Virus record (IMG/VR): IMGVR_UViG_3300001282_000006
From: a virus
Lineage: Duplodnaviria; Heunggongvirae; Uroviricota; Caudoviricetes
Reading direction: 5' to 3' (one strand)
DNA: 64,000 bases
The position numbers and the translations under genes are program-made. A model generated the notes under the pieces. It saw only the letters and a list, made by a program, of their open reading frames with translations, made no database searches and was not told where the DNA came from. Of the stretch, positions 3,075 through 63,697 are shown piece by piece. Position 1 is the stretch's first letter, and every line of letters begins with the position of its first letter.

Positions 3075-3092
3075 TAATTTAATATATAACAT

Positions 3093-4052
3093 ATGATTAA
3101 AAGATATTTAGAGTTTATAAAAGAAAGTCAAATTAATGGATTCAATTCACTAGGTGAGTGGGTTGAATCTTTAATATCTGATGATTATGTTAGAAACATA
3201 GTAGCTCGTTATACAAAAGATTCTGATGCTTCTATTGATTTATCAAATGCTATTAATATCTTAGATGATAATACTAAAGATGAAATTAAATATCAAATTG
3301 ATAATTATTTACAAAATGGTATTGAAGAAAAAGAACCTGAGTTCTTAGTTTCAACTGATTTAGAAGAATTAACTGAATCTGAGATTACAGTTGCTGGTAA
3401 AGGTATATTTATTTCTTTCTTAAAATCTTTAACCAGTTTAGGTCAAAAAGAAGTGGGTCCAAATTGGTCTAAATCTTCAGATGACTTTTTATTATACTAT
3501 TACTATCCTAATTTACAATCAGAACATGTAAAACAAGTATTTTCAAGATTCAAATCTTTAAGTAGATACTTAGACCATGTTGATTATCAAAAAAATGAAG
3601 TTGATTTATACTTTGGTATCAAATGTGATGGTAATTTTGAATATGGTTTACATTATGATGTACCAACACCAATTGGTCAATTTAAGTTGAATCAATCTGT
3701 TATTAAATGGATTTGTCAAATTGAATCTAAGTCTGCTCATTCATTAAAGAAAGAATTAGTTAATTTAACTTTAGCAGATGTAATTACATTAGGTAAAATT
3801 AAATTAGATATGAAAGAATTCAATCCGGGATATCACGAATCAAAAGATGTTGTGAAAATTCAAGATAAGATTATTTCATTTGGATATAAAGGTTTAGGTA
3901 AATGGGACAACGGTAAATTTGATGAAGGTGAGTTTATGAATATTAAAAATAACTTCACTACTTGGGTAATGACTAAGAGATGGGGTGGTAAAGTTTTAAT
4001 AAGTGTTAAACCAACATCATATTATGTTTACATACATATAAAATTAAAGTAA
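3093..4052 (+). CDS. Hypothetical protein with a T4-CTS-like N-terminal leader (MIKRYLEFIKE|S).
   Basis: 319-aa ORF. TTTAATATATAAC motif lies immediately upstream of the ATG. Confidence 0.7.
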   Translation: MIKRYLEFIKESQINGFNSLGEWVESLISDDYVRNIVARYTKDSDASIDLSNAINILDDNTKDEIKYQIDNYLQNGIEEKEPEFLVSTDLEELTESEITVAGKGIFISFLKSLTSLGQKEVGPNWSKSSDDFLLYYYYPNLQSEHVKQVFSRFKSLSRYLDHVDYQKNEVDLYFGIKCDGNFEYGLHYDVPTPIGQFKLNQSVIKWICQIESKSAHSLKKELVNLTLADVITLGKIKLDMKEFNPGYHESKDVVKIQDKIISFGYKGLGKWDNGKFDEGEFMNIKNNFTTWVMTKRWGGKVLISVKPTSYYVYIHIKLK

Positions 4053-4054
4053 TC

Positions 4055-4798
4055 ATGAAAATTAAAAACTATAAACTATTTTTAGAGTCAAATAATTTTG
4101 ACTTTGATTTTTTAGCAAACATTGGTAAAATGAAACAAGCTATTATTAAAATAGTTCAACTTCATGAGAAAAAGTGTTATGGTGATATTAAACTATCATC
4201 TTATGAAAGATTTAAAGCTTCATTAAATGATTTAATTGATAGTGCTGTTAAAGGTGAATATACAATTACTGAAGATTACTTATCTGTAATTAATTTATTT
4301 GAAAAAGAAGTTTATGGAAAAGATTTACTTTCTTCTTATGAAGAATCTATTTTTAGTCATTTAGATGATTTGATATCTTGTTTTAATAGTTTATTAGATA
4401 ATGAGGAAAAAGACGAAGAAGATATTATGAGATTAGGAAAAGATGCTGACCATATCTTAAATAAGATGGATGAGACTTGGATTTATACTTCTGATGAATC
4501 TAATGTTAGTATTTCTGATATTGATATAAGTGATATTGATGATGCTATTGCTGGTTTAGACGATAGATTGTCAAAAGAAACAGATGACATGTGGACTTCT
4601 GAAGAAGAATTTGAAAAGGATATTGAATCATATATTGGAAAGAAAATGGATGATTTTGATTACTCGGATAAACTACAAGCTTATCAATATATTGAGAACA
4701 AAGAATGGGTGAAAAATATACTTGAAGGTGGTTCAGAAAAAGATAAAGACTTTGTTACTAACTTTCTTTCTCAAATGAAAGATATGTTTGGCATATAA
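4055..4798 (+). CDS. Hypothetical acidic protein with a CTS-like leader (MKIKNYKLFLE|S).
   Basis: 247-aa ORF rich in D/E. Confidence 0.7.
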   Translation: MKIKNYKLFLESNNFDFDFLANIGKMKQAIIKIVQLHEKKCYGDIKLSSYERFKASLNDLIDSAVKGEYTITEDYLSVINLFEKEVYGKDLLSSYEESIFSHLDDLISCFNSLLDNEEKDEEDIMRLGKDADHILNKMDETWIYTSDESNVSISDIDISDIDDAIAGLDDRLSKETDDMWTSEEEFEKDIESYIGKKMDDFDYSDKLQAYQYIENKEWVKNILEGGSEKDKDFVTNFLSQMKDMFGI

Positions 4799-4813
4799 AT
4801 TAATATATACATT

Positions 4814-5125
4814 ATGAAATACTTAAAGAAATATAACGAAAATCAAGAACAACAAGATCCTGAGTTTGCTATTGCTAAAATTAAGGGAAGATATCCTGAG
4901 GATATGGTTCAAGATATGTTAAATGATGAGATTAATCAGTGGAAGCCAGATGAAGAAGATCCAGAATTCTATTCAAGAACTGGAAACGGAGAAGCAGAAG
5001 ATGTTATCATCAATCAAATGATTGGTTGGTTTGATAAAAAGTATTATGCTTTATCTGATGAAAACTTTGAGAAAGTTAAACAATTAATACTAAAAGAGTA
5101 TGAGTTCTTAAACTTTAACTACTAA
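4814..5125 (+). CDS. Hypothetical protein (MKYLKKYNE..., weak CTS-like start).
   Basis: 103-aa ORF. TATAAATTAATATATACATT sits directly upstream of the ATG. Confidence 0.6.
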   Translation: MKYLKKYNENQEQQDPEFAIAKIKGRYPEDMVQDMLNDEINQWKPDEEDPEFYSRTGNGEAEDVIINQMIGWFDKKYYALSDENFEKVKQLILKEYEFLNFNY

Positions 5126-5130
5126 ACAAA

Positions 5131-5170
5131 AAATGAAAACTTTTCTATAACAAGAAAAGTTTTTTGTTTT
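5131..5170 (+). terminator. Rho-independent terminator-like hairpin.
   Basis: gaaaacttttct-ataaca-agaaaagtttt followed by a T-run. Confidence 0.5.
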
Positions 5171-5503: not shown

Positions 5504-5675
5504 GAGTCCAGGAGTTTTTGTTAAAGAAGTAGATATATCTATTGTTAGACCAACTTTTTCCAAAAGATATTCAAGAAGAATAAAAATAGGTAAAATATTT
5601 GATATAGATGTTCCTAATATTATTATAACTTCTACTCCAAAAGGAGGACCCTCAAACTTTCCACAAATCTGGTGA
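5490..5675 (+). CDS. Small hypothetical protein. It overlaps the end of the previous ORF.
   Basis: ATG at 5490 inside the ORF 5406..5675 on the six-frame track. Confidence 0.3.
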   Translation: MGVFKSPGVFVKEVDISIVRPTFSKRYSRRIKIGKIFDIDVPNIIITSTPKGGPSNFPQIW

Positions 5676-5705
5676 TGAAAACATGTTAGAGTAATATATA
5701 CTCTA

Positions 5706-6041
5706 ATGATAAATGTTTATTTGATATGTGCCGAATTTGAAGGAAGAAGATTGTATAAGATTGGTTATACAAGAAGAGATGTCTCTAAAAGAATTAAAGA
5801 GTTGAAGACTGGTAACGGTTCTGAAATGTATGTTATAGATTCTTTTAAGTCAAAATGGGGAACTAAAATTGAATCACAGTTACACAGAACATTTAAAAGT
5901 AAAAAGATAAATGGTGAGTGGTTTGATTTAACTGATGAAGAAGTAAAATCATTTATGGAAAAATGTAAATCTTCACATGATGTGATGGAACTAATTACCA
6001 CCAACAATACTTACTACTTAGAAACTGGTAAACTATATTAA
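5706..6041 (+). CDS. GIY-YIG-like T5orf172 / MUG113-domain protein.
   Basis: YKIGYTRRDVSKRIKELKTGNGSEMYV...INGEWFDL matches the T5orf172 pattern (KIGxT..R..EL...EWF). GTAATATATACTCTA lies just upstream of the ATG. Confidence 0.55.
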   Translation: MINVYLICAEFEGRRLYKIGYTRRDVSKRIKELKTGNGSEMYVIDSFKSKWGTKIESQLHRTFKSKKINGEWFDLTDEEVKSFMEKCKSSHDVMELITTNNTYYLETGKLY

Positions 6042-6050
6042 TAAATATAA

Positions 6051-6058
6051 TATAAATA
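6051..6058 (+). promoter_or_regulatory. TATAAATA box (T4-late-promoter-like) 19 nt upstream of the ATG at 6077.
   Basis: Exact TATAAATA. Confidence 0.35.
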
Positions 6059-6076
6059 AAAAATAAACTTTCGAAT

Positions 6077-6343: not shown

Positions 6344-6345
6344 TA

Positions 6346-6705: not shown

Positions 6706-6725
6706 ACTAATTTTGATTATTTTGA

Positions 6726-6733
6726 TATAAATA
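6726..6733 (+). promoter_or_regulatory. TATAAATA box 21 nt upstream of the SbcC-like gene.
   Basis: Exact TATAAATA. Confidence 0.35.
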
Positions 6734-6753
6734 AAAAATAGTCAAAAGTATTA

Positions 6754-10394: not shown

Positions 10395-10406
10395 GTATAT
10401 ATTAAA
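10395..10406 (-). promoter_or_regulatory. TTTAATATATAC motif upstream of the minus-strand gene 8826..10370.
   Basis: Plus-strand gtatatattaaa. The same motif recurs upstream of many genes. Confidence 0.35.
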
Positions 10407-19502: not shown

Positions 19503-19514
19503 GTATATATTATT
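19503..19514 (-). promoter_or_regulatory. TATATATTA-type motif upstream of the minus-strand gene 15171..19481.
   Basis: Plus-strand gtatatattatt, 22 nt beyond the start codon. Confidence 0.3.
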
Positions 19515-19567
19515 TATTAAGACTTTCTTTGTAATTAAACTTTATTTAATTAACTTTGTAAAATAGT

Positions 19568-21248: not shown

Positions 21249-21437
21249 ATGAATAAAGAAACTCTTGATATATTTGGTCAATATCTAAATGGTAATAAAC
21301 AAATTATGATGTTGAAGGCTAGGCAAACTGGTAAGTCAAGTGCCACCGCTTCTTTAATGGCTTGGAAACATCTTCATAGTAAATATGAAAGAGCAAGAAC
21401 GAGAAAAGAAACCATAAAACGGCTTTTTAATATATAA
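21249..21437 (+). CDS. Hypothetical small protein.
   Basis: 62-aa ORF. Confidence 0.4.
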   Translation: MNKETLDIFGQYLNGNKQIMMLKARQTGKSSATASLMAWKHLHSKYERARTRKETIKRLFNI

Positions 21438-23203: not shown

Positions 23204-23252
23204 AATTATGATTTTTTATTAATGTATATATTAAATTTAATATTCGATTTTT

Positions 23253-23915: not shown

Positions 23916-23925
23916 GTATTATATA

Positions 23926-24648
23926 TTAATAATTCATAATTATCAACTCTGTACCCATTATAGTTATCTTAGAATCAAATTTACAAGTAGGATAAAGTTC
24001 TTCTATACCGTCGAAATAGTAGTAACTTAATAAGAACTTTCCTTTAATATTATTAAGAGTTTCCGCCAGCTCTTTATGAGTATCTTTATTAAAATCGTGA
24101 TTGATATAGTACTCTTCTTTACCCATATAAGGCGGATCTACATAAAAGAATGTTGATTCTGAATCATACATTTCAATTACTTTTTTATAATCGTAGTTGT
24201 GTATATTATTTATTTTACTTAAATGATGTTCATAAGCACGGTGCTTCATTTTAAGTATATTGAATTCACTATTATCTCTCCAAGAATCTTTACCAATTTC
24301 ATAAGGAGATGAGCAAGTTAAAACAACTAACCAATAAAGAGAAAGTAACATCTCATCTTTTTCAGTTATTATTTTTTTCAAACAACTTCGATAGTAATCT
24401 TCATCTATCTCTGTGTTCTTAAATAATTCAACAAAATTAGAATTTCGTAAATTTTTGAATAATAAATAATTTAGATTATTCTTATCATTATAGATAAAAT
24501 TAACATCCTTAAACTTAGTGAAGTCTAAGGCAAAAAAAATACCAAACATTCCGGCAAATGGTTCTACATAAGTAGAAATATTATTGGGAATATTTGGTAC
24601 TATAAAGTTCGCAAATTTAGATTTCTCGCCTAAATAAGGTATCAGCAT
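23926..24648 (-). CDS. dam: Dam-like N6-adenine DNA methyltransferase (D12 class).
   Basis: YVEPFAGMFGIFFAL (FxGxG-like) and YVDPPY catalytic motif. Confidence 0.8.
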   Translation of the reverse strand: MLIPYLGEKSKFANFIVPNIPNNISTYVEPFAGMFGIFFALDFTKFKDVNFIYNDKNNLNYLLFKNLRNSNFVELFKNTEIDEDYYRSCLKKIITEKDEMLLSLYWLVVLTCSSPYEIGKDSWRDNSEFNILKMKHRAYEHHLSKINNIHNYDYKKVIEMYDSESTFFYVDPPYMGKEEYYINHDFNKDTHKELAETLNNIKGKFLLSYYYFDGIEELYPTCKFDSKITIMGTELIIMNY

Positions 24649-26108: not shown

Positions 26109-26116
26109 TATTTATA
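26109..26116 (-). promoter_or_regulatory. TATAAATA box on the minus strand, 19 nt upstream of the M16 peptidase start.
   Basis: Plus-strand tatttata. Confidence 0.35.
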
Positions 26117-26136: not shown

Positions 26137-27102
26137 TTATAAGTCAACTTTGAATTTGCCCCAAATGACAACATCACCATCAATAACTTCAATATCAGTT
26201 CCAGCCCATTCTAAATATTTAACTATACCAGATGATACATCTTCTGATGTTGTTGTATCTGGAAAAGCTTTATTAATAGTATCAGCCATTTCATTTGTGT
26301 ATATAATCATTCTATCATCTTCAACTAAAGTAAAATCTTCAATTTGAATTGATGATCTTAAAAAAGAAGTTAAATTTTTTATCAGATTATCACCTAAATC
26401 GGATCTTCTAACTGGAACTTTATTAATTACACCATTACGCATAACACTTGATGATATCATCTCACTCCAGTTATCTTTAATATCTTGTTGTAAATAAACT
26501 AAAGCTTCTTCTCTAAATTGTTCAACTGTATAACCTATTTGATCTAACATTAATTGACCATATTTAGTTTGATGATAACCATATTTATATCTGATGTACA
26601 TCTCATCACCTTCAGCATAAGAGGCCCATCCATCTCCACCTAATGAAATAATATCATTAGCATTTAATCCTAATTTTTTAGCAGTAAAATAAAGATAAAC
26701 ATCACAGTGACCATTTTGACTTCCTATTTGTCCATAACTATTAAACCAACCATCAAAATCTTTATCAACTAATTTATTAGCTTCTTCGCTGAATAAGTTT
26801 TTAATTGATTCAAAGTCCCAACCTTTTTTATTAAGCAAATTTTGCATTTCTTGATAATCAGCTTCAGGGTTAGCATCTTTCCTTTTACACATATCAGAAA
26901 ACCAACCAGGATAAAAATCAGACATAGCAATTACTGACTCTTCAAAATCATCTCTTAACTCTTGTATAGTTTCTTTACCAGTACCTGGTACTTTTAAAAT
27001 AACTCTACTTATAATAGTGTCTAATTCTTGCTTAGTTAATTTTGGCTTAGCAACTAGAGACTCATTAATAAAATCATTATACTTTTTTAAGTTCTTCTTC
27101 AT
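26137..27102 (-). CDS. Hypothetical protein with a CTS-like leader (MKKNLKKYNDFINE|S).
   Basis: 321-aa ORF. Confidence 0.7.
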   Translation of the reverse strand: MKKNLKKYNDFINESLVAKPKLTKQELDTIISRVILKVPGTGKETIQELRDDFEESVIAMSDFYPGWFSDMCKRKDANPEADYQEMQNLLNKKGWDFESIKNLFSEEANKLVDKDFDGWFNSYGQIGSQNGHCDVYLYFTAKKLGLNANDIISLGGDGWASYAEGDEMYIRYKYGYHQTKYGQLMLDQIGYTVEQFREEALVYLQQDIKDNWSEMISSSVMRNGVINKVPVRRSDLGDNLIKNLTSFLRSSIQIEDFTLVEDDRMIIYTNEMADTINKAFPDTTTSEDVSSGIVKYLEWAGTDIEVIDGDVVIWGKFKVDL

Positions 27103-27250
27103 CTTCTTCTTCTTCTTGTTCTTCTATTTCAACTTCATTAATTAACTCATCTGCGCACCATTCGTGGTCATATCCAACATCACTGTCGTTGTAAAAATGT
27201 AATTTAGTAGTCATAAAATATTAGAATTTTTTTTGTAAAGTATATATTAA

Positions 27251-34578: not shown

Positions 34579-34584
34579 AAAATT

Positions 34585-34598
34585 AATATATATACCAA
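34585..34598 (+). promoter_or_regulatory. TTAATATATATAC motif upstream of 34619.
   Basis: ttaatatatatacc. Confidence 0.3.
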
Positions 34599-41558: not shown

Positions 41559-44500
41559 TTATCTGATAGAAGTGTTAATTGCTTGAGTTGCCTTCTTAAC
41601 AATTACTTTGCTTCTATTTATGTTAAATTTAATACTAAATGTAAATGGTCTATTTTCAGATTCATTTTCTAAGAAGAATTTAATTTTCTTAATATGTTTA
41701 ACTGTTTGTCTAGATGTATTTAGATTTATGTATTTATAGTTTAATCCTGGTTGATTATTATCTAATGAGTTCATTTTAAAGTAGATATTTAATGGAATAA
41801 CTGTTGAATTAACATCTCCTGTATCTATAGTTTTAACTTTTTCTGAATTGGTCTCCACAATTGTTTCTAAATTATTTACAACTGGATGAATAGTTGTTAG
41901 TAATTTAGCTGTTGATGAAACTGAAACATTAGTGTCTAACCATTTAGATGGATCTAATAATGACTTATTATTACCAACAAATGAGAGTATAGATGTTTCA
42001 TTATACCCTATATTATACTCATTTGATGATAAAACATTAGTAATAGAGTTTGATGCGTTTGTAGTAAATATATTACCAATATTTTCAGTTAATTTAGTAA
42101 CTGATGTTTCTAATACTGAATCATAATTAACTGTCCAGATATATTGATTGTCTAATTGTGTTCTTGTTTGACCTGATGAATCTGATGTAATCAATTCATC
42201 TTGATCATTAACCCAGAATGTTTGAGGAGCTCCGGTATTATAGAAATTAGGATTTTGTAAATAAGTTCTTCCAGAAAGTAAACCTAATGGTGAACTTGTT
42301 GATTTATTTCTAATTTTAACAACAAAGTCTTTAACAACATAAACGTTATTAGCATAAACTCTACCAGATGGAATACCTGCTCCTGTATAAGAGTCAAGAT
42401 AATCTTCACATTCAATATTAAATGTAGTTTCACTTCCATTAGCAACGACAAACTCTTGGTTGTTTCTAAGAATAACAACTTCAAGTTCACCTTTAACTCT
42501 TTTAATTTTCTCTTCTAAACTTAAAATTCTTTCTTGTAAAGATTTTAAGTAGGTATATAAGTCCAAAGCAACACCATTCTCATCTTTGAATCCTGATAAA
42601 ATTTTATTACTATCGTGATGGAATGTAAGATTATTAACAACTATAGTATCTGATAAGTGATCATCTAAACCTTTAGACGATAACTCTTGATTCATTTTGA
42701 TTTTTAAATCTTCTGAAGTTGCCGATTTTAATATAAAATCACTTTCATTCAATACATTATTTAAATCATCTGGAAACTCAACAGTTAAAATTTCAGACCA
42801 ATCTGATTCTGTTGGAGATTCGGGCCAACCTACTTCTGAAATAGATTTAATTCTCATTTCAATTTTTTCATTAGCTTGAATATCTACATCAATTTGATTA
42901 ATATTTGGCGTGTCCGCACTTTCAACATCTTCAATTTCCCAAGTGTATTCACTAGTTCCTGGATTATATGTTCTTTTTCGAGCATCAGTCTTAAACTCTT
43001 TCCAGTTTGAGAAAGCCGCTTTAGATTGAGTATTATCAACATTAAATGTTTCAATAGGAGATTCAGTACCATCTTTAGAAACATATCTATATTGAACTCT
43101 AAATTGAACAATTTCTTGTGGTCTTGTACCTCTTGTTACAACAGCTGATGGTACTGTCCAGAATCCTCTAACTCTAAATTTAGGTTGAACTTTAGTTTTA
43201 GGATTATTTGATAATTGAATAATTTCTTGAGTTGTTGTAGAAAGTAATTTAGATTTACTATCTTTTTTTCTAGTCAAATCTTCTATCTCAAGCATAACTT
43301 GTTTTTTATCAGATTCTGATTTAAACTTAACAAATTTAGATTTAGCGTTTTTATCAACTATAGCATCTTGAATTTGTTGAACTTCAGATTTTAATGTTAA
43401 ATGATAATTATGTTTTTGCTTAATTAAATTAGAATCTGGTGTATCTGTTAAGTGTTTATTAATTTGAACAACTTTGAAGTTACCAGCATTTAATGTAGGA
43501 GCCAATGGTGTACCAGCTAAAGCATTAGGTGTCTTTTTAGCAACTAAGTCTTTCAATACAGTTCCATAATCATATACATAATCTGTATAGAATTGTTCCA
43601 TAGTAAGACCATTCTCAGGCGCGTTTGAATCCAAAGTTAAATCATTTGTCCAGTATCCTGTACCTAAACTCCAATTTCTTGCCAATAAGTGATTATCAGC
43701 ATTTAGAGGTTTAATAAAAATAACATTTCTTTCATTATAACCAACACTTATTTTAACTATTTTACTATAAACAACTGGTGAATATATTTTAATTGTGCTA
43801 ATTCCAACAGCAATTGGTTCAACACCTTCAACTCTTTCAAATCTAACTCTTGGACTTGACTCTGATGTTGAAACTTCGGTTACTTTATATCTTGTTGATG
43901 TTTGTTCTGAATTTATAATAATTTCACTACCAATAGATAATTGAGCTGTTTCATTAGTACTTCTAACTAAATAAGTTAATGTATCTAAAACATACCAAAG
44001 TTTTCTGTTAATTCTATCTTCTTGTATTTTAAGAACTGAAAATTGACCATCATATAATAAATCGTGTGGATCTAAATCAAATACTTGTTCATCAAATTGA
44101 GGATTAGTAGGATAAAGAACACCAGATGTTGTATTGTGCCAGTTTTCAAAATCAGAAATATTAATTGATGCGTTACCTCTAAATAAAGTATTAAAACTAT
44201 TAAGAGCTGATTGACCAAGTGTTGTTAAAGTACCTGTAGCATCTTTTGCGAAATCAACGATATATCTTCTAGATTGAACTTTTCTTACATTATTTTCTAC
44301 TTTACCGGTTAAATCTAATTCAATAGAAATAATAGGACTCATAAGTCCATCAAAAAACCAGTTATTCAAAGCTTTAAATTTAGTAAGTGACCCAAGTGTT
44401 CCGACAGCATTTGGTTCTCTATTTAAATCTACTGTAATTATTTTTTTGTATTTATTTTGATTAGATGTTGAAATCATCGCACCACCAGCATCAATACTAT

Positions 44501-44726
44501 AAAGAGAGTTGATATTATTATTTAATCTATCAATTTCACCTTTTAGTGAAGCAAATGATGGAACGGCATAAGTTCTTAGAACTCCATTTTCATCATAAAT
44601 TTTAATATTTACAGATTGGTCTGTTGTGGTAGCTAAACTATTAATTTGACCTAGTATTTCTATAATATTCTTATTAGAAGAGATAACCTGGTCAGCTACG
44701 GTCGGAAATGAGCTTTGAATTGGCAT
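41559..44726 (-). CDS. Large virion structural protein (1055 aa) with a central coiled coil.
   Basis: Long ORF. LKSLQERILSLEEKIKRVKGELEVV coiled-coil segment. Confidence 0.8.
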   Translation of the reverse strand: MPIQSSFPTVADQVISSNKNIIEILGQINSLATTTDQSVNIKIYDENGVLRTYAVPSFASLKGEIDRLNNNINSLYSIDAGGAMISTSNQNKYKKIITVDLNREPNAVGTLGSLTKFKALNNWFFDGLMSPIISIELDLTGKVENNVRKVQSRRYIVDFAKDATGTLTTLGQSALNSFNTLFRGNASINISDFENWHNTTSGVLYPTNPQFDEQVFDLDPHDLLYDGQFSVLKIQEDRINRKLWYVLDTLTYLVRSTNETAQLSIGSEIIINSEQTSTRYKVTEVSTSESSPRVRFERVEGVEPIAVGISTIKIYSPVVYSKIVKISVGYNERNVIFIKPLNADNHLLARNWSLGTGYWTNDLTLDSNAPENGLTMEQFYTDYVYDYGTVLKDLVAKKTPNALAGTPLAPTLNAGNFKVVQINKHLTDTPDSNLIKQKHNYHLTLKSEVQQIQDAIVDKNAKSKFVKFKSESDKKQVMLEIEDLTRKKDSKSKLLSTTTQEIIQLSNNPKTKVQPKFRVRGFWTVPSAVVTRGTRPQEIVQFRVQYRYVSKDGTESPIETFNVDNTQSKAAFSNWKEFKTDARKRTYNPGTSEYTWEIEDVESADTPNINQIDVDIQANEKIEMRIKSISEVGWPESPTESDWSEILTVEFPDDLNNVLNESDFILKSATSEDLKIKMNQELSSKGLDDHLSDTIVVNNLTFHHDSNKILSGFKDENGVALDLYTYLKSLQERILSLEEKIKRVKGELEVVILRNNQEFVVANGSETTFNIECEDYLDSYTGAGIPSGRVYANNVYVVKDFVVKIRNKSTSSPLGLLSGRTYLQNPNFYNTGAPQTFWVNDQDELITSDSSGQTRTQLDNQYIWTVNYDSVLETSVTKLTENIGNIFTTNASNSITNVLSSNEYNIGYNETSILSFVGNNKSLLDPSKWLDTNVSVSSTAKLLTTIHPVVNNLETIVETNSEKVKTIDTGDVNSTVIPLNIYFKMNSLDNNQPGLNYKYINLNTSRQTVKHIKKIKFFLENESENRPFTFSIKFNINRSKVIVKKATQAINTSIR

Positions 44727-44746: not shown

Positions 44747-44758
44747 TTATATATTAAA
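44747..44758 (-). promoter_or_regulatory. TATATATTAAA-type motif upstream of 41559..44726.
   Basis: Plus-strand ttatatattaaa, 21 nt beyond the start. Confidence 0.3.
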
Positions 44759-44807
44759 TTTTACTCATTTCTTTAATATTTGTTTTTAATAAATTATTTC
44801 CTTACAT

Positions 44808-45053
44808 TTGCTTATGATGAAGATTTACACAGTTACATTCAATGATGGTGGTTGGCATAGCGGACCTCTGCCAAATTTCATTGTAGTAGCCGAATCAAAA
44901 GATGAAGCTATTGAAAAAGTTTTAGAAAAAAATCCTAGATACAAAAGTGGATATGACAAATGGGCCTCAGAATTCACGATTGAAGGCTACATAATTGAGG
45001 TTTATGATGAAAAAACATATAACCGTGATAAAATTATTGATAAAATTCTTTAA
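44808..45053 (+). CDS. Hypothetical protein.
   Basis: 81-aa ORF. Confidence 0.5.
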   Translation: MLMMKIYTVTFNDGGWHSGPLPNFIVVAESKDEAIEKVLEKNPRYKSGYDKWASEFTIEGYIIEVYDEKTYNRDKIIDKIL

Positions 45054-45081
45054 TTAATAAAAAATTAACTATCTTTGTAAA

Positions 45082-47952: not shown

Positions 47953-48729
47953 ATGAATGATCTAAAAAATGAACAACAATCTACTGAAGAAATTATTGAA
48001 ACAGACACAACTTTTGCTGATATATATGATATAAATTATTCGGGTGAGCAATCACCATTAACGGCAAAAGAAGGCAATATTGAGGATGAATTAATGACTC
48101 CTCAACAAAAAAAGAAACGGCAAAATATGGAACCTAAAAAGGCAATTCTATTCAGTGAACAAGAAAAAGTATTTAGAGAAAGAACGGGTAAAGATTTCTC
48201 ATCATTGTACACAAAGTATTACCCAAAACTAGTATATTTTACAGCTAAAATTACTAATGACCCTCAAAAAGCAGAAGATATCTCAACAGATTCATTCATG
48301 GCGGCTTTTGAGAAGATTGAGAAGTATGAAAAAGAAAAATCTCAATTCTCTACCTGGCTATTTACAATAGCAAAAAATCTAGCATTACAAGACCTTAAAA
48401 ACGAAAAGAAAACAATGTCGTTAGATATTGAGTTCGATGATGAAGGAACAACAATGAAAGACTTCATTCAAGAAGACGAAGGTGACAATTTCATGCATGA
48501 GATTCATGCTAAGAAAGCTGACATTATGAAGAAGCACATTGAGAACTTGAAGAATCCTTATCGTGATGTAATCGAAATGCGTGAGTTAAAAAGAATGTCT
48601 TATAAAGATATCTCCGATAAACTTAACCTAAACCTATCAACAGTTAAATCACAAATTCGTAACGGAAGAGCTATCTTAGTTCGTGAGACTAAGAAAGAGT
48701 TTGACGCTATCGATGAAATGTTAATGTAA
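47953..48729 (+). CDS. Sigma-70-family RNA polymerase sigma factor (regions 2 and 4).
   Basis: Region-2-like FMAAFEKIEKYEKEKSQFSTWLFTIAKNLALQ. Region-4 HTH YRDVIEMRELKRMSYKDISDKLNLNLSTVKSQIRNGR. Confidence 0.75.
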   Translation: MNDLKNEQQSTEEIIETDTTFADIYDINYSGEQSPLTAKEGNIEDELMTPQQKKKRQNMEPKKAILFSEQEKVFRERTGKDFSSLYTKYYPKLVYFTAKITNDPQKAEDISTDSFMAAFEKIEKYEKEKSQFSTWLFTIAKNLALQDLKNEKKTMSLDIEFDDEGTTMKDFIQEDEGDNFMHEIHAKKADIMKKHIENLKNPYRDVIEMRELKRMSYKDISDKLNLNLSTVKSQIRNGRAILVRETKKEFDAIDEMLM

Positions 48730-50470: not shown

Positions 50471-51064
50471 ATGAAAAACATTGAATATTTTTTTGAATTA
50501 ATACAAAAATCTGATATATCTCTTTTGGGGTATAGATTCAAGCAGGAAAGACTCAAAGACGAGATTATTTCTAAACTACCTCACTTGGTGGTTCCTGAAA
50601 TAGACTCGTCTTTTTCTTTTAAATCTTTTTTAAGAGATTTGAAACTTCAATCAATTTTAGAAACTGGTAATACTGTAAACAATCCAGAGTATCTTGTTTT
50701 AGATTTAAATGAGATTATATTTAAGTCAGATGATTTAGGAGGTAGACAAAATCAAATAGGAAATATTATTAATAAAATCAGAGAAGATTTATACTCAAAT
50801 TATTCTGATGTTTACCCTCAAACACCACCTTATAAACTTTTAATGTTAACATCACTATATAGTAGTGTAAAGAATGTTGATGATGCTAGTATTACAAATT
50901 TCAAAGGTGGTAGTAAACCAATTTATGTAAGTGATGTGGCTATTGTGATGGAAGAGGAGTCAATGAAAGTAATAAAGAATAGATTTGATGATAACAACAT
51001 TGATATTTCTTACAACAAATTAAAAGATTATAACTATATTTGTAACTATGAAAATAACAACTAA
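50471..51064 (+). CDS. Hypothetical protein.
   Basis: 197-aa ORF. Confidence 0.55.
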   Translation: MKNIEYFFELIQKSDISLLGYRFKQERLKDEIISKLPHLVVPEIDSSFSFKSFLRDLKLQSILETGNTVNNPEYLVLDLNEIIFKSDDLGGRQNQIGNIINKIREDLYSNYSDVYPQTPPYKLLMLTSLYSSVKNVDDASITNFKGGSKPIYVSDVAIVMEEESMKVIKNRFDDNNIDISYNKLKDYNYICNYENNN

Positions 51065-53532: not shown

Positions 53533-53539
53533 AATGTAT

Positions 53540-54018
53540 ATATTAAAATTTATTTGGTAAATTGAAACTTTCTTTCTACATTTGTATAAGAATTAACCAA
53601 GAGTCGTTAAGACAAGAGCTAAGAAATTAGCGTGTCGAAAGATTTCACATTAATATATGATAAAACCGTGTGAGTCTTAACGAAATTATGGTAGTAAGTA
53701 GCTGTTAAATAAGTTAACACCCTTGTTAAAGCCAGTGAACTACCTTGTAAATATAACTATATAATAATAGTAAGGGTGTAGATATCGAAGTCGTGTTGGT
53801 GATAGATGTCTCAAATAACTAATGATTAAACCCAACTCAAAGAAGATTTTAAACGAGCAGAATGGTAACACTGCTCAACCGAGGCGAAAGCATATTAAAA
53901 GGTAATCCTAAGTGATGAGGTCACTAAAAGTCAAGGTAAGGTTCTCGGATTTCGACCATACTTGACAGACGTTCCACCAATCTTCTTTTTTAATTGTAAA
54001 TAAGTAAATAAAAATAAA
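53540..54018. other. 480-bp ORF-free region that is GC-richer than its surroundings. It is a candidate structured non-coding RNA or regulatory region (tmRNA partner of SmpB, or an origin).
   Basis: No ORF longer than 28 aa in a genome otherwise packed end to end. Local GC is clearly above background. Confidence 0.25.
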
Positions 54019-54922: not shown

Positions 54923-55016
54923 TTTGTAGTTTTATAGTTTAACTTATATATTAAAAACAATTTCTCACATTTTGATGTACGATTAAATTTTTACTATATA
55001 AAAGAAAAAATTAATT

Positions 55017-55229: not shown

Positions 55230-55278
55230 ATTTTAATAATAGTTTGGTAAATTATTATTTTTTCCATATCTTTGTGTT

Positions 55279-55527: not shown

Positions 55528-55767
55528 TAAAAAAATAAAAAATATTAGGTGGAATTAAAACTTTTATCTATATTTGTATAAAATAAGAACAAAATAACCA
55601 AAAGGAAGAAATCCTTTTTAATATATAAAGAAATGACAACAAATCGCACACATAAACATTTTAGTAAATCGAGCAAGTGGTTTAGCACCCAGTTCGGTAC
55701 TGAAAGAGTATTGCGTGATTTGAAGGATGTCATTTAAGATTATCTAGAAAATTAAAATCAATATATC

Positions 55768-56463: not shown

Positions 56464-56546
56464 GATCCTGTCGCTTAGCGGCTATAGCAACTGGCTTTTA
56501 ACCAGTAGATTAATTTCAACCGTGGGTTCGAGTCCCACCAGGATCA
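56464..56546 (+). tRNA. tRNA-Lys-like paralogue (UUU anticodon as read) with a 15-nt variable region.
   Basis: GATCCTG..ACTGG-CTTTTAA-CCAGT-AGATTAATTTCAACC-GTGGG-TTCGAGT-CCCAC-CAGGATC-A. Confidence 0.45.
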
Positions 56547-56555
56547 CTAAGTAAT

Positions 56556-56638
56556 GCGTCTGTCGCTTAGTGGCTATAGCAACTGGCTTTTAACCAGTAG
56601 ATTAATTTCAACCGTGGGTTCGAGTCCCACCAGACGCA
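56556..56638 (+). tRNA. Tandem near-identical copy of the previous tRNA with a different acceptor stem (GCGTCTG/CAGACGC).
   Basis: The body is identical to 56464..56546 except for one D-loop base. All seven acceptor-stem base pairs are replaced. Confidence 0.45.
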
Positions 56639-56645
56639 CAAAATT

Positions 56646-56729
56646 GATTCCGTCGCATAGCGGCGATTGCGCCAGACTCTTAATCTGATGATGAAAAGTC
56701 CACCGTGGGTTCGAGTCCCACCGGAATCA
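56646..56729 (+). tRNA. tRNA-Lys-like paralogue (CUU anticodon as read) with an expanded variable region.
   Basis: GATTCCG..CAGA-CTCTTAA-TCTG..GATGATGAAAAGTCCACC-GTGGG-TTCGAGT-CCCAC-CGGAATC-A. Confidence 0.4.
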
Positions 56730-56738
56730 CAAAAAATG

Positions 56739-56879
56739 GAGAGAGTAGCTCAGTTGGTAGAGCACGTTATTATACTCTGATAAGTATTCTCTGATTACGG
56801 TTAACGTAATTAGTAGTGATGTTAAGAGTTACTTCGGCTGTTAACCGCGTGGTCGTAGGTTCGAGTCCTGCCTCTCTCC
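56739..56879 (+). tRNA. tRNA gene interrupted by a ~65-nt insertion (putative small intron). A possible anticodon arm CGG-CTGTTAA-CCG gives GUU/Asn.
   Basis: Canonical GAGAGAG-TA-GCTCAGTTGGTAGAGC 5' part and GTAGG-TTCGAGT-CCTGC-CTCTCTC-C 3' part, separated by extra sequence containing AGAGTTACTTCG. Confidence 0.4.
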
Positions 56880-56945: not shown

Positions 56946-57073
56946 GGGGATGTAGCTCAGTGGTAGAGAAAACTATCTCTTTTGAAATTTTACCTCGTAA
57001 GAGTGTTGATTGAGAGAGTTACTTCGTATATTTTGAAATTATAAGGTCGTTGGTTCGAATCCAACCATCCCCA
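56946..57073 (+). tRNA. tRNA gene interrupted by a ~55-nt insertion related to the one in 56739..56879.
   Basis: GGGGATG-TA-GCTCAGTGGTAGAG...GTTGG-TTCGAAT-CCAAC-CATCCCC-A. The insert contains GAGAGTTACTTCG and a duplicated TTTTGAAATT. Confidence 0.4.
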
Positions 57074-57116
57074 CAAAAAAAGAAGAATAAAAAATTAATA
57101 TATAACAAATAAGATT

Positions 57117-57194
57117 ATGAAAACAATTATTAACACATCGTCAAAATCGTCAAGTCGCTCGTCAAAAATGAGTGAGGTTCGATCGTGTTCATAA
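57117..57194 (+). CDS. Possible 25-aa Ser-rich micro-ORF inside the tRNA cluster.
   Basis: ATG preceded by TTAATATATAAC and followed by a terminator. MKTIINTSSKSSSRSSKMSEVRSCS. Confidence 0.15.
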   Translation: MKTIINTSSKSSSRSSKMSEVRSCS

Positions 57195-58127: not shown

Positions 58128-59852
58128 TTAACTAATTTTAGATATTATAAACCAAGGGCCGTTATTAGGTGTTGTACCACTTTTTACAATAGTAATTGAT
58201 CCATAATTTGTAGATATTACATAAGAAAAAATACCATCTATTTTATCACCACCAATCGCATTTATTTGAATTTGATTAGCGGTAGCATTACCACCTTCAT
58301 CTTTTATGTGAATAACTTTACCATCTGCTATACCAGCGCTAGCAGGTAAACTTAAACTAATTCCTGATTCGGAAGCTAGTGAATCCACTGGTATATATTC
58401 AATATCAGTAGATGGTGAAGGCGATATTGTTATAGAACCACTCATAGTCATTGAGGGTGTAGACATTAAAAGTGAACCACTTAATCCTGATGTACCACTC
58501 GATCCACTTGTTCCTGATGTTCCACTTGTTCCTGAAGTTCCACTTGTTCCTGATGTTCCACTTGTTCCTGATGTTCCACTTGTTCCACTTGTTCCTGATG
58601 TTCCACTTGTTCCTGATGTTCCACTTGTTCCTGATGTTCCACTTGTTCCTGATGTTCCACTTGTTCCTGATGTTCCACTTGTTCCTGATGTTCCACTTGT
58701 TCCTGATGATCCTGAAGTTCCAGATGATCCTGAAGTTCCAGATGATCCTGAAGTTCCAGATGATCCATTTGCTCCTGGACTGCCAATACTTTGTAAAATA
58801 AAACTTATAGAATAATCTCTATATTCTAATAAAGTTCCATTTGATGCTATAACTCCAGTAAGAGAAATGGTAAATGTATAATGTGTTCCATTATCAGTTG
58901 ATGTGTTTATTGAATAAATACCAAATATAGTAGCATCATCAGATTTAGTTATCTGTAAATAAACACTATCAGCGCTTGCGGTTACCATTGTGTCAATTGT
59001 ACCCAACCAACTAGTAACATCACCATTTAAACTTGTTTTATTTATACTAATTAAATTAATTAATGATGTATCAGTCTCGGAATTAGTGTCAAACTTTTCA
59101 AATGTAGTCGCAGTTGATGTGTTATCTAATGTCCATTTTAAAGTATTGGCAGCATCAGCACCCGAATTTCCGGATGTTCCAGCAGTTCCAGATAATCCAC
59201 TTGTTCCAGATGATCCTCTTGTTCCAGATGATCCTGAACTACCTGATGATCCACTATTACCACCCATTATAACCCAACTAATTGAATATTCTAAGCTGTT
59301 AGTAGGAGTACCATTTGATGAAACCTTAGTAACTTCATATCTCCAGTGTGTTGTTTGGTCAGAACCAGCAGTAACTTGGTAAATACCATATATGTTAGGA
59401 TCAACTAACTCTGATATTTTCATATAAACAGCGCCTGAAAATAAAGTAGCATAATCTCCCAAAGCTGTTAACCAAGATGATACGTCACCAATTTGACTAG
59501 AGTAATTAATTAAAACATAATTATTTGTTTGTGTAAAATCAGCAGTGGTTAATTCAAACTCACCGGTTGTATCTTTATCACCATATATCCATTTTAATGA
59601 GTTACCACCATCTGCTCCACTTGGTCCAGTTGCTCCAATATTTCCGCTTGTACCCGAAGATCCAGATGTACCAGCAGATCCAGATGTACCAGCAGAACCT
59701 GTACCAGCACCTGATCCAATTTCTGTTATAACTCCTGTAGAATCTTTTTGTTTAAATTTTCCATCTAGTGTATCTAAACCCATTATAATACCTGATGAAG
59801 GAGTTGCTGCTCCTGACATATCTGTGTAAGTGGAAAGTGAAATTATACTCAT
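58128..59852 (-). CDS. Collagen-like triple-helix-repeat protein with three (G-T/S-S)n blocks separated by non-collagenous domains.
   Basis: GSAGTSGSAGTSGSSGTSG..., GSSGSSGSSGTRGSSGTSGLSGTAGTSG..., and a long (GTS)n run of ~35 triplets. Confidence 0.8.
   Translation of the reverse strand: MSIISLSTYTDMSGAATPSSGIIMGLDTLDGKFKQKDSTGVITEIGSGAGTGSAGTSGSAGTSGSSGTSGNIGATGPSGADGGNSLKWIYGDKDTTGEFELTTADFTQTNNYVLINYSSQIGDVSSWLTALGDYATLFSGAVYMKISELVDPNIYGIYQVTAGSDQTTHWRYEVTKVSSNGTPTNSLEYSISWVIMGGNSGSSGSSGSSGTRGSSGTSGLSGTAGTSGNSGADAANTLKWTLDNTSTATTFEKFDTNSETDTSLINLISINKTSLNGDVTSWLGTIDTMVTASADSVYLQITKSDDATIFGIYSINTSTDNGTHYTFTISLTGVIASNGTLLEYRDYSISFILQSIGSPGANGSSGTSGSSGTSGSSGTSGSSGTSGTSGTSGTSGTSGTSGTSGTSGTSGTSGTSGTSGTSGTSGTSGTSGTSGTSGTSGTSGTSGTSGSSGTSGLSGSLLMSTPSMTMSGSITISPSPSTDIEYIPVDSLASESGISLSLPASAGIADGKVIHIKDEGGNATANQIQINAIGGDKIDGIFSYVISTNYGSITIVKSGTTPNNGPWFIISKIS
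58500..58770. repeat. Perfect tandem nucleotide repeat (18-nt unit ccacttgttcctgatgtt for ~11 copies, then ccagatgatcctgaagtt for 3 copies) encoding the (GTS)n run.
   Basis: Seen directly in the sequence. It generates spurious repeat ORFs on other frames. Confidence 0.85.
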
Positions 59853-59926
59853 TTGTAGTAATTTTTTTTATTACTCTATATATTATTTTGTCAAATGGCT
59901 TTTATTATTTATCTTTGTTCCGAATT

Positions 59927-60495: not shown

Positions 60496-60500
60496 ATTAT

Positions 60501-61571: not shown

Positions 61572-61669
61572 AAAAAAATTCAGATATTTTTTCTAGTGTG
61601 TTATCATAATAGGATATTCTTAATTTCATTAAGAAACTTATTCCAATCTTCATTAGTCCAAGCAGTACT

Positions 61670-61700
61670 AAAAAAACCTCATCTTAATTGATGAGGTTTT
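61670..61700. terminator. Bidirectional rho-independent terminator.
   Basis: aaaaaaacctcatc-ttaattg-atgaggtttt. Confidence 0.7.
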
Positions 61701-61705
61701 ATAGA

Positions 61706-62215
61706 TTATATTTCTACTTTAGTTATTTCAAAGTAACCACGATGGTCTTTCATACCTACTTCAAATCCTTTCTCAAATTTACAATAGTATCCACCAATCC
61801 AAACTAATCCTACATCTTTATAATCTTCAGTAGCGTATCTTCTATCAGTGCTGGTTATTTCATTATCATCTAATTTTAATTCAGTACCAAATATTCTTGA
61901 AGTATGAACATATATCTCTGAATTTTTAGGATCGTATGATAACCAATGGTCATCTTGTTTACCAGTAAATGATTTACCATTAAATTCGTTTCTAGTTACT
62001 TCAAATGGAGTTGTAGCAACTTTAACAAGATTAAATCTATTATCATTTCTTTTTAAAGTAAATTCACTACCCATAGCCAAAAATGATGGTTTTCCTTCAG
62101 AATTTTTTATATCTTTTAATCTTCTCTCAAATTCAGCTGTTGGTTTTACCGTTATAGAAAACGGATGCTTATTATCTTTATCTGTAAAGTTTTCAAATAG
62201 TTTTAAGTATTTCAT
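61706..62215 (-). CDS. CTS-like-leader protein (MKYLKLFE|NF), paralogue of 62243..62707.
   Basis: ATG at 62215. Shared C-terminal YCKFEKGFEVGMKDHRGYFEITKV compared with CKFDEGVTPGTRDHRGYFEIVSV. Confidence 0.7.
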   Translation of the reverse strand: MKYLKLFENFTDKDNKHPFSITVKPTAEFERRLKDIKNSEGKPSFLAMGSEFTLKRNDNRFNLVKVATTPFEVTRNEFNGKSFTGKQDDHWLSYDPKNSEIYVHTSRIFGTELKLDDNEITSTDRRYATEDYKDVGLVWIGGYYCKFEKGFEVGMKDHRGYFEITKVEI

Positions 62216-62242
62216 AGTCAAGTTTTTTTTTATTATTATTAT

Positions 62243-62707
62243 TTATCTAACTGATACAATTTCAAAATATCCTCTGTGATCTCTTGTACCTGGAGTCACA
62301 CCTTCGTCAAATTTACAATACCAGTTATTAGTTATATTTTTCAAAGAATTAAAACTATTTGGTATATCAATACCTTGGTCCGAGTGTTCGCTAGACTGAA
62401 TTATATTTATTTCATCACCACTATATACAATATAATACCATATGGTATTTTTTCTGTCTTCTTTAGAAAACACTTTAAATAATGGGTAATAATAACCTTT
62501 TCTCATTTCAAGTCCGCCATCACCATAATTATGGTGACCTTCTCCTTCAAGATTTTTTAAGTTAGAAGCGAATCCATGTGCTTGATAAACTTTATCACCT
62601 TCAGTTCCTTTCCAATATTGGTTAATAAAACCATCACCATTAAATTTAACAGTTATTATTTCAGGTTTTTCTTGAGTGAAGTTTTCAAATAGTTTTAAGT
62701 ATTTCAT
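62243..62707 (-). CDS. CTS-like-leader protein (MKYLKLFE|NF), paralogue of 61706..62215.
   Basis: ATG at 62707. The 36 nt spanning the 5' UTR and the first codons are identical to the paralogue. Confidence 0.65.
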   Translation of the reverse strand: MKYLKLFENFTQEKPEIITVKFNGDGFINQYWKGTEGDKVYQAHGFASNLKNLEGEGHHNYGDGGLEMRKGYYYPLFKVFSKEDRKNTIWYYIVYSGDEINIIQSSEHSDQGIDIPNSFNSLKNITNNWYCKFDEGVTPGTRDHRGYFEIVSVR

Positions 62708-62837
62708 AGTCAAGCTTTTTTTATTATTGTATATATTATTTTTTTTAACCAATTTTTCACACAATTTAAGAATTATATCACCATGTATCAATCTTGATTT
62801 TTGTATAAATTCTTCTTGTGTTAATTTTTTAGGCATT

Positions 62838-63200
62838 TTAATATTTAGGTAGTTTCATATCTGTTGTGATTTCAATCTTGAAACCAAATCCAGTATCATC
62901 ATCTGAACTATATTTAACTTCTGAGTCATAACCTCTATTACCATCAAATGTTGTTGGTTTAGGACCATTCATTCTGGCTCTTCTTCTCATTTCTTCTTCT
63001 TTTCTTTTAGATTCTTCTTGGGCAACCATTTGTTCAAATGTTAAACCATTATCAACTTGTTTTGGTTCTTCTCTAGTTGAGAATTGTTGAGGTTGATGTC
63101 CATATTTACGAAGTAACTGTTCTGCCTCCCAACTATCAATATTAGCTGGTTGAGTTTGTTCTTCTTGATTTTGTATAATTCTTACTTCTGGTCTATTCAT
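62838..63200 (-). CDS. Hypothetical protein.
   Basis: 120-aa ORF. Confidence 0.55.
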   Translation of the reverse strand: MNRPEVRIIQNQEEQTQPANIDSWEAEQLLRKYGHQPQQFSTREEPKQVDNGLTFEQMVAQEESKRKEEEMRRRARMNGPKPTTFDGNRGYDSEVKYSSDDDTGFGFKIEITTDMKLPKY

Positions 63201-63204
63201 AATA

Positions 63205-63636
63205 TTAAATTATTTTATCTAAGTATATTTCGTTACCATATCTATCTAATTCCCAACCCTCTATTGGATTATTCTGTAAATATCTATAGTAAACTTTTGT
63301 TCTTTGAGTGATAGCGTCACTTTCATTTCCTTTACCTAAACCTTTTATAGTGATTTCAGAACACCAATCATTTTTACTAATAAAGTCTGATATAATTCCG
63401 TTAAATATAGTTTTCAAAAGACTGAATATGTTTGTTGGAACTAATTCAAATGTCCAGTTATCACCAGTTTTAACTCTATAAACAACTTCAGCTTCACCTT
63501 GTGGTTTTCTATCTATTTCAACTCTAAAATCATTTTGACCATCTGAGAAATAATAATAGTAGGTAGCACCATCTAAACCACCATCTTCAAACGGATAAAA
63601 TTCAATAGATTCAAGTATAGATTTAAGATGTTTCAT
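63205..63636 (-). CDS. Hypothetical protein with a CTS-like leader (MKHLKSILE|SIE|F).
   Basis: 143-aa ORF. TTAATATATACCTTA sits directly upstream of the ATG. Confidence 0.7.
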   Translation of the reverse strand: MKHLKSILESIEFYPFEDGGLDGATYYYYFSDGQNDFRVEIDRKPQGEAEVVYRVKTGDNWTFELVPTNIFSLLKTIFNGIISDFISKNDWCSEITIKGLGKGNESDAITQRTKVYYRYLQNNPIEGWELDRYGNEIYLDKII

Positions 63637-63697
63637 TAAGGTATATATTAAAACTTTTGATATTATTAAAGTATAAATTAATAAAATAATCTATTAT

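Follow-up and report, generated by a model that had tools for sequence, protein, structure and literature searches.

Late genes of bacteriophage T4 are transcribed from promoters made of an 8-bp TATA box that starts at -13, without a -35 element; they occur on either strand, with some 50 of them in 169 kb (PMC2988020). In the Bacteroidetes, the sigma-A box TAnnTTTG occupies positions -12 to -5 (PMC9723704), and leaderless messages are rare, with 3.7% of the mRNAs of B. thetaiotaomicron having a 5' untranslated region (UTR) shorter than 10 nt and 5.5% of those of F. psychrophilum being leaderless (PMC7366714, PMC9723704). The Mahaphage clade contains the largest known phage genomes (>600 kb) and has no cultured member, and no published promoter was found in the literature for its phages. 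Here we describe an element, T-TAATATATA-(C/A), which recurs before genes of a 64,000-nucleotide phage sequence (IMG/VR record IMGVR_UViG_3300001282_000006; this whole stretch is called the window) and before genes of its relatives. This element, referred to as the box, is probably the late-gene promoter of a T4-related megaphage clade of Bacteroidetes.

The window has a G+C content of 30% and is 92% coding. It shows patchy nucleotide identity of ~77% to the uncultured 635-735-kb phage genomes LR745206 and LR756501-3, which originate from the study that defined the Mahaphage clade and predicted Bacteroidetes hosts for every genome above 634 kb (PMC7162821). A Bacteroidetes host also fits the signals of the window itself, because Shine-Dalgarno cores precede 4% of the genes, which equals the shuffle value and agrees with their absence as noted in an earlier, sequence-only reading of this DNA, because E. 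coli-type -35/-10 matches are at chance (124 against 126.9 expected) and such promoters were rejected as candidates, and because the window genes are preceded by more Bacteroidetes sigma-A -7 boxes, TAnnTTTG, than expected (7 sense copies against 1.5). LR745206 was analysed over all of its 634,780 bp, with open reading frames (ORFs) called mechanically. It is T4-like, with homologues, confirmed with PHROGs, of gp17, gp18, gp19/54, gp20, gp23, gp25 and gp39 as well as of gp41, gp43, gp44, gp46, gp47, UvsX and UvsW.

About 10 exact copies of TAATATATA would be expected in the window from base composition (our own estimate) and 18 are present; this excess is modest, and it is the placement of the copies, not their total count, that is far from chance. 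Copies occur on both strands, and all 18 are in sense orientation toward a downstream ORF, after correction of four mechanical gene calls (small conserved ORFs at 55633 and 57117, and starts at 62707 and 27214). Sense copies within 40 nt of a called ATG were found for 14 genes and antisense copies for none; over 1000 dinucleotide shuffles of the upstream regions, the mean was 0.74 and the highest value 5. Intergenic DNA of the window contains 14 copies against 1.3 expected. The tandem gaps have 8 sense and no antisense copies, and a copy is present in 7 of the 9 divergent gaps and in none of the 9 convergent ones. The flanks of the 18 sites have no common similarity outside -2 to +9 and +13. 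Twelve sites of this type had been listed in the sequence-only reading (4 on the plus strand and 8 on the minus strand); all of them are present, and the upstream excess over shuffled sequence, on which its proposal depended, is borne out by these counts. Six further exact copies are located at 21428-21437 (+), 23919-23928 (-), 27240-27249 (-), 55619-55628 (+), 57096-57105 (+) and 62729-62738 (-). A position weight matrix for degenerate sites was dropped because it gave too many background matches in AT-rich DNA, and candidates with one mismatch are not counted among the sites.

LR745206 contains 191 exact copies, of which 160 are intergenic, although intergenic DNA makes up 7.6% of this genome. 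In its tandem gaps, 67 copies are in sense and 6 in antisense orientation (p = 4e-14), and a single copy was found among 125 convergent gaps. Gene interiors hold 20 copies compared to 54.2 +/- 7.5 in codon shuffles, indicating that the box is avoided inside genes. A tRNA-Met gene follows one of the copies at a distance of 18 nt, and no ORF intervenes. An unbiased k-mer ranking of the upstream intergenic DNA of this genome returned only terminator tails, the host-type box TATATTTG and TTAATATATA(A/C).

The box is also conserved at individual genes. Orthologues of the gene 41559-44726 (-) were found at 15 IMG/VR loci, with 50-87% protein identity. In 14 of the 15 loci, T(T/A)ATATATA(A/C/G) persists 18-22 nt upstream of the ATG while the flanks diverge, and in the fifteenth a box is located ~57 nt upstream of the mapped start of the match. 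Among the 41 window genes with an orthologue in LR745206, the box is present in both genomes for 6, in one only for 4 and in neither for 31 (Fisher p = 1.6e-4). The box was detected in LR745206, LR756501 and IMG/VR relatives, and 40-kb samples of Lak-C1, LR756500, pT24 and MA9V-1 showed no box or a weak signal at best; it is confined to a sub-clade.

The distance between the box and the start codon was counted from the first T of the box to the A of the first ATG that opens an ORF. In LR745206 this ATG stands at +13 in 45 sites and at +14 in 22, then almost nowhere until a broad peak from ~+26 to +38. A set of 198 distinct contexts, taken from 80 closely related and so non-independent IMG/VR loci, gave the same bimodal distribution. 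In the leadered class of LR745206, position +13 is an A in 86% of the sites, though no ATG is found there, and in the window an A occupies +13 in 17 of the 18 sites (p = 2e-6). From this bimodal spacing and the conserved A, transcription seems to start at a fixed position 5 nt downstream of the box, and the simplest reading is that the conserved A would itself be the start nucleotide.

Where the ATG is at +13 or +14, a leaderless mRNA is predicted. In the window, 7 of the 18 sites have the predicted start nucleotide on the A of the ATG, as do about half of those in the relative, and the remaining sites would give an A-rich leader of 13-25 nt. Leaders of a few nucleotides are missing, presumably because they would serve neither mode of translation start. 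Judging from this geometry, some 40-50% of the box-driven messages should begin exactly at the AUG. For the genes starting at 5706, 53532 and 63636, both the leaderless arrangement and the aligned N-termini are conserved between the window and LR745206.

The homologues of gp23 (capsid), gp20 (portal), gp18 (sheath), gp19 (tube) and gp25 in LR745206 all have the box directly upstream, and the terminase gene is preceded by a near-variant of it. Among the replisome genes, no box stands within 45 nt of the starts of gp43, gp41, gp44, gp47 and gp39. The gp61 gene has only a one-mismatch copy (TAATATATC), and a box occurs only ~48 nt upstream of gp46, outside the 45-nt span that was tested. This distribution suggests late expression of the box-driven genes. 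The sequence-only reading had proposed a promoter element of the -10/-7 type, and TAATATATA(C/A) does behave as such an element, tied in the relative to late (virion) genes.

A candidate for its recognition is a gp55-like late sigma factor of 121 aa encoded in LR745206 at 189151-189516. It was detected with a profile built from 19 gp55 relatives (E = 2e-5) and with PHROG 234, 'late sigma transcription factor' (1.9e-7); a search of the same genome with the single sequence of T4 gp55 gave nothing significant. The conserved motifs YxNNK(E/D)L and NF(D/N)E.K..N..AY.T are aligned in this protein. Its homologues are found in the other 636-735-kb uncultured megaphage genomes of the phage collection, in Lak phages, in Tenacibaculum phage pT24, in the Xanthomonas phages XacN1 and Xoo-sp13, where they are annotated as late sigma, and in 476-kb and 483-kb IMG/VR contigs that are the closest relatives of the window. 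A homologue of the gp44 clamp loader is also present in LR745206.

No upstream column exceeds ~0.5 bit across 132 aligned box sites, and thus there is no conserved -35/-33 element. In LR745206, TTTG is found upstream of 4-5% of the box sites compared to 25-28% of the host-type boxes. Several window sites are preceded by GAAA(T)-like strings, which were considered as a fixed -35 element; they were rejected, as their spacing ranges from 6 to 19 nt and nothing of them survives in the 132 sites. Close relatives keep one such string before gene 44726.

Compared to the T4 late-promoter word TATAAATA, the last 8 nt of the box, AATATATA, differ at 2 of 8 positions and match at 6 of 8 in the best register. 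The sequence-only reading had taken exact copies of TATAAATA as a separate T4-late-like class. The four boxes that it named are indeed found at 6051, 6726 and 28280 on the plus strand and at 26109 on the minus strand, but the class itself could not be upheld: the word was rejected because it is enriched neither in the window (19 copies against 18.0 expected) nor in its upstream regions (3 against 2.3), and these counts match composition. With 6 of 8 positions matching and the exact word at chance, the box is to be seen as a variation on the T4 word and not as a copy of it. In the tandem gaps of LR745206, TATAAATA shows a modest sense bias (28 against 8), which is partly explained by A-rich leaders.

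The exact T4 word at 6051..6058 (+) sits within a 15-mer, TATAAATAAAAAATA, which occurs at six sites, 6051-6065 and 6726-6740 (+) in the window and 294371, 88547 (-), 225937 (-) and 480088 in LR745206. These copies are located 10-13 nt before ATGs, and one of them precedes the gp46/SbcC orthologue in both genomes. The 15-mer, with its six sites, may represent a promoter variant or a minor class of promoters in which the T4 word is embedded. A one-mismatch variant, TAATAAATA, has a sense bias of its own: it lies within 45 nt upstream of the starts of 20 genes in sense orientation, against 3 in the other, and in tandem gaps its copies are 11 sense and 2 antisense.

The box is read as this clade's form of the T4 late promoter because of its geometry, the lack of a -35 element, the virion genes behind it, the gp55-like sigma factor, the similarity of AATATATA to the T4 word and its density, as 18 copies in 64 kb and 191 in 635 kb amount to the same ~0.3 sites per kb as the T4 late promoters. 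The promoter would be reduced to one A/T-only box, spanning about -13 to -5 and lacking an upstream (-35/-33) element, and transcription would start 5 nt downstream of the box, at the conserved A. The box would be recognised, by analogy with T4, by the host RNA polymerase core together with the phage gp55-like late sigma, whose gene would lie elsewhere in the genome, outside the window.

Several points weigh against this proposal. Gene starts were taken as the first ATG of mechanically called ORFs, and the transcription start site is proposed from sequence alone. Most of the window genes behind the box gave no match of known function in PHROGs, Pfam and PDB sequence searches. The contrast between virion and replisome hallmark genes involves few genes (Fisher p = 0.035), and the box is also found before uvsX, uvsW, a phosphohydrolase gene and small ORFs of the tRNA array; since such non-structural genes carry it as well, the class may be 'middle plus late' and not strictly late. 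The gp55-like gene was not found in the 64-kb window, its presence in this phage being deduced from the relatives. T4 gp45 gave no significant match in a single-sequence search, and gp33 was not searched for.

The alternative that survives best keeps the box as the same promoter and assigns its recognition, as the sequence-only reading had suggested, to an ECF-like sigma factor encoded in the window at 47953..48729 (+). The host-type promoter of the ligase operon would supply this sigma factor early. We regard this alternative as unlikely. That a sigma factor is encoded there had been recognised from the sequence, and it is confirmed by matches over regions 2 and 4.2 (Pfam Sigma70_r2, 1.3e-15; r4_2, 7e-11) and by PHROG 1740. 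The protein is real and conserved across the clade, with homologues in other uncultured megaphage genomes, Lak phages and crAss-like phages, and a homology search with its sequence found no other sigma-70-family protein in LR745206. Its gene follows the ligase gene in the same gene array, downstream of the leaderless host-type promoter TATCTTTG at 45070-45077, an arrangement that fits an early-to-late cascade. However, ECF-type sigma factors, which have region 4.2, normally need a -35 element, and the 132 sites show none. Lak phages have a homologue of this sigma, yet the 40-kb sample of Lak-C1 is without the box. Structural-gene promoters are of the gp55-type, -10-only kind in T4 (PMC2988020) and apparently also in pT24. 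The ECF-like sigma is thus an unproven and not favoured candidate reader of the box, and the gp55-like sigma fits a -10-only box better. The phyletic pattern was uninformative for choosing between the two, as Lak phages have both sigma factors and the box is lacking in the sample.

The box might also be the binding site of a phage DNA-binding regulator, activator or repressor, at promoters that are recognised through other signals. Its core is nearly palindromic (TATATA) and it is more invariant than most -10 elements, as would suit such a site. We nevertheless consider this improbable, as the orientation in tandem gaps is strictly one-sided (67 against 6), the distance to the conserved A and to the leaderless ATGs is fixed, and the box occupies the very place required of a -10/-7 element. 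Moreover, no other promoter-like element is found nearby, since E. coli-type matches are at chance and TTTG at -33 is absent.

Still less probable is an RNA-level signal, either a translation-initiation enhancer replacing the Shine-Dalgarno sequence or an RNase processing site. The absence of Shine-Dalgarno cores and the sense orientation of the box close to start codons would be compatible with it, and the sequence-only reading had offered a translation-initiation context as one role of the motif. This role was not borne out, because the ATG distance is bimodal (+13/14 or ~+26-38) and not fixed, and because one copy stands directly before the tRNA-Met gene, where no ORF intervenes. Furthermore, the A at +13 is conserved even at sites without an ATG there, the box is depleted on both strands inside genes, as for a DNA signal, and the known sigma-A box abuts ATGs likewise. 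Leaderless transcripts are the better explanation for boxes that stand so near to start codons.

Recurrence by chance in TA-rich low-complexity intergenic DNA of a 30% G+C genome (18 copies against our ~10 expected), or by duplication of gene heads, several downstream genes having similar N-termini, is effectively refuted by the shuffles of upstream and intergenic DNA, which never reach the observed counts, by the convergent gaps, which are equally AT-rich but empty, by the dissimilar flanks of the 18 sites and by the conservation of the box at orthologues whose flanks diverge.

The host-type sigma-A boxes are placed in a similar manner. In LR745206, TAnnTTTG peaks 4 nt before ATGs, with a TTG signal ~21 nt further upstream (-33), and a sigma-A box at this distance would put +1 on the A of the ATG. 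In the window, the -7 box TATCTTTG at 45070..45077 (+) lies 4 nt before the ligase ATG at 45082, whose message is predicted to be leaderless; the box is kept in LR745206 as TATATTTG, and the arrangement and the N-terminus are conserved too. Further TAnnTTTG boxes are located on the plus strand at 44803-44810, 51035-51042, 55267-55274 and 19551-19558. Four of these five host-type boxes are 3-5 nt before an ATG and several have TTTG near -33. Genes with such a box 3-5 nt before the ATG, DNA ligase included, should be leaderless as well. In both promoter types, +1 would thus coincide with the A of the AUG. The clade may use perfectly leaderless mRNAs for about half of the late genes and for ~40% of those that have a host-type promoter, a proposal for which we see the balance as nearly even, tilting slightly to the negative. 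The host-type boxes of LR745206 also include two extended subclasses, CGTATATTTG(T) and TTCCTTATATTTG, with ~10-14 copies each, which may be distinct early promoter grades.

Seven of the window sites belong to class I, with the ATG at +13 or +14. On the plus strand, TAATATATAA at 3080..3089 precedes the ATG at 3093 (+13) of a 319-aa gene, and TAATATATAC at 4801..4810 precedes the ATG at 4814 (+13) of a 103-aa gene; both are predicted to be leaderless. The copy of TAATATATAC at 5692..5701 (+) has its ATG, 5706, at +14, and the orthologous gene of LR745206 (292161) shows the same arrangement. On the minus strand, TAATATATAA at 23919..23928 has the ATG of a 60-aa ORF, 23915, at +13, and TAATATATAC at 53536..53545 has ATG 53532 at +13; in the LR745206 orthologue of the latter gene, TAATATATAA is followed by 5 nt and then the ATG. 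The copy of TAATATATAC at 63641..63650 (-), with ATG 63636 at +14, is conserved at the LR745206 orthologue. Finally, TAATATATAA at 55619..55628 (+), at the head of the tRNA array, has ATG 55633 at +14.

In class II sites the ATG is more distant. On the minus strand, TAATATATAC at 10395..10404, in a divergent gap with ATG 10364 at +40, is the sole window site without an A at +13, and the LR745206 orthologue also has a box. The other minus-strand sites of this class are TAATATATAC at 19503..19512 (predicted start 19499, ATG 19481, 1436-aa gene), TAATATATAC at 23224..23233 (predicted start 23220, ATG 23203, N-terminus MKHLKLFENF), TAATATATAC at 27240..27249 (predicted start 27236, ATG 27214, 45-aa ORF), TAATATATAA at 44747..44756 (predicted start 44743, ATG 44726, 1055-aa gene), TAATATATAA at 54944..54953 (predicted start 54940, ATG 54922), TAATATATAG at 59876..59885 (predicted start 59872, ATG 59852, 574-aa collagen-repeat protein) and TAATATATAC at 62729..62738 (predicted start 62725, ATG 62707, MKYLKLFENF...). 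As the last box is enclosed by the called ORF 62243-62836 (-), the mechanically called start of this ORF is probably wrong. Those on the plus strand are TAATATATAA at 21428..21437 (predicted start 21441, ATG 21462), which overlaps the stop codon of the upstream gene and is conserved in LR745206, and TAATATATAT at 34584..34593 (predicted start 34597, ATG 34619, N-terminus MKNLKTFEAF).

Some of the genes behind these sites have features of their own. The 574-aa protein 58128-59852 (-) contains collagen triple-helix repeats (Pfam 6e-22) and is probably a fibre or another virion component. The 45-aa ORF from 27214 (-) crosses a (GAA)n repeat (region ~27077-27214) and goes on in another frame as ORF 26137-27102; a frameshift, programmed slippage or a faulty assembly of the repeat could account for this. 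Region 61706-62836 (-) contains two adjacent paralogues, starting at 62215 and 62707, which both have the N-terminus MKYLKLFENF and share a repeated upstream string, AAAAAAA(G)CTTGACTATGAAATACTTAAAA.

An N-terminal motif is common to many box-driven proteins of the window, at the starts 3093 (+), 10364 (-), 23203 (-), 34619 (+), 53532 (-), 62215 (-), 62707 (-), 63636 (-) and 4814 (+). Examples are MIKRYLEFIKES, MIKKYSDFIKEN, MK(H/Y)LKLFENF, MKNLKTFEAF and MSNMKHLMLFEAF. The motif resembles the 10-residue capsid targeting sequence MKTYQEFIAE of IPIII and IPII, as read from T4 (for the concept of the capsid targeting sequence see PMC9026906), and 21 proteins of LR745206 have such N-termini. From this resemblance, these proteins may be prohead-targeted internal or injected proteins.

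The tRNA array also shows several particularities. The ORF behind its first box, 55633-55737 (+), encodes 34 aa, MTTNRTHKHFSK... (MTTNRTHK...), and is conserved in LR745206; the minus-strand ORF 55545-55733 that overlaps it is probably spurious. Within the array, TAATATATAA at 57096..57105 (+), with predicted start 57109, precedes the ATG at 57117 of ORF 57117-57194 (+), which encodes 25 aa, MKTIINTSSKSS... (MKTIINTSS...), is also conserved in LR745206 and is followed by tRNA-Arg. Rfam gave full-length tRNA matches at 56739-56879 (141 nt) and 56946-57073 (128 nt), both on the plus strand and missed by ARAGORN, and these lengths imply inserts or introns of ~55-70 nt. Three tRNA-Lys genes, 56464-56547, 56556-56639 and 56646-56730, have an unusual length for tRNAs of this class, 83-85 nt. 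The tRNA clusters of LR745206, e.g. at 342554, 366228, 387898 and 406869, have a terminator-like G+C hairpin and T-run directly 5', and no recognisable promoter was found directly 5' of these clusters.

In the sampled region of pT24 (128444-168722), a cultured Bacteroidetes phage with a gp55-like gene, ATAAATA boxes are found before genes of the structural region and TAnnTTTG boxes before replication genes of the polymerase and helicase region. This phage is a possible laboratory model for late transcription of such a kind.

A box with a fixed start would sort hundreds of megaphage genes of no known function into those with host-type, probably early, promoters and those with phage-type, late, promoters. 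It would also fix start codons in genomes without Shine-Dalgarno sites and flag virion and injected proteins. If the leaderless proposal is true, start codons could be annotated exactly from sequence, and mass leaderless expression would be a phage-wide translational strategy in a host phylum in which leaderless mRNAs are rare, which might tie to the translation genes of huge phages (ribosomal proteins S1 and S21, initiation factors).

Among known systems, the Bacteroidetes sigma-A promoters (-7 TAnnTTTG and -33 TTTG) resemble the box in position, -12 to -5, and in the 5 nt to the start site (PMC9723704, PMC7366714). Their boxes, which are also present in the window before ligase, Sir2 and other genes, abut ATGs as well. 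Unlike them, the box has neither a TTTG core nor a -33 signal, and it precedes virion genes and not ligase, Sir2 and the like.

The early promoters of the virion RNA polymerases of AR9 and phiKZ-like jumbo phages (e.g. AAATATATATTAT-N6-G) share with the box a near-invariant A/T-rich TATATA-type sequence, a start fixed a few nucleotides downstream and the lack of a -35 element (PMC5312081). The jumbo-phage group that contains the Lak phages, to which this clade belongs, is reported to lack an RNA polymerase and to rely on sigma factors (PMC7824862); RNA polymerase was not searched for directly here. The AR9/phiKZ-like promoters drive early genes by means of a phage multisubunit RNA polymerase, whereas virion genes follow the box, and the present clade is T4-like, with T4-type capsid, portal, sheath and terminase genes. 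An early promoter of the phiKZ/AR9 type does not agree with these virion genes and T4-type hallmark genes. In poxvirus late promoters, which are used by the virus's own polymerase, the TAAATG initiator overlaps the start codon and the transcripts carry poly(A) heads. The likeness to them lies only in the layout, with a late promoter core that abuts or overlaps the ATG, as these are eukaryotic viruses and no homology is involved.

The T4 late promoters (TATAAATA; gp55, gp33 and the gp45 clamp) have, like the box, an A/T-only sequence from about -13 and no -35 element (PMC2988020). In both systems the promoters occur on both strands and stand directly before virion genes, and the relatives of the present phage encode a sigma factor of the gp55 family. 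The uvsW gene, which has a late promoter in T4, carries the box in LR745206. The differences from T4 are the consensus, T-TAATATATA-(C/A), the length of the box (9-10 bp), which is more invariant than the T4 box, the predicted start on the AUG in about half of the sites and the Bacteroidetes host. The T4-type late box appears to have drifted by two bases along with a gp55-like sigma.

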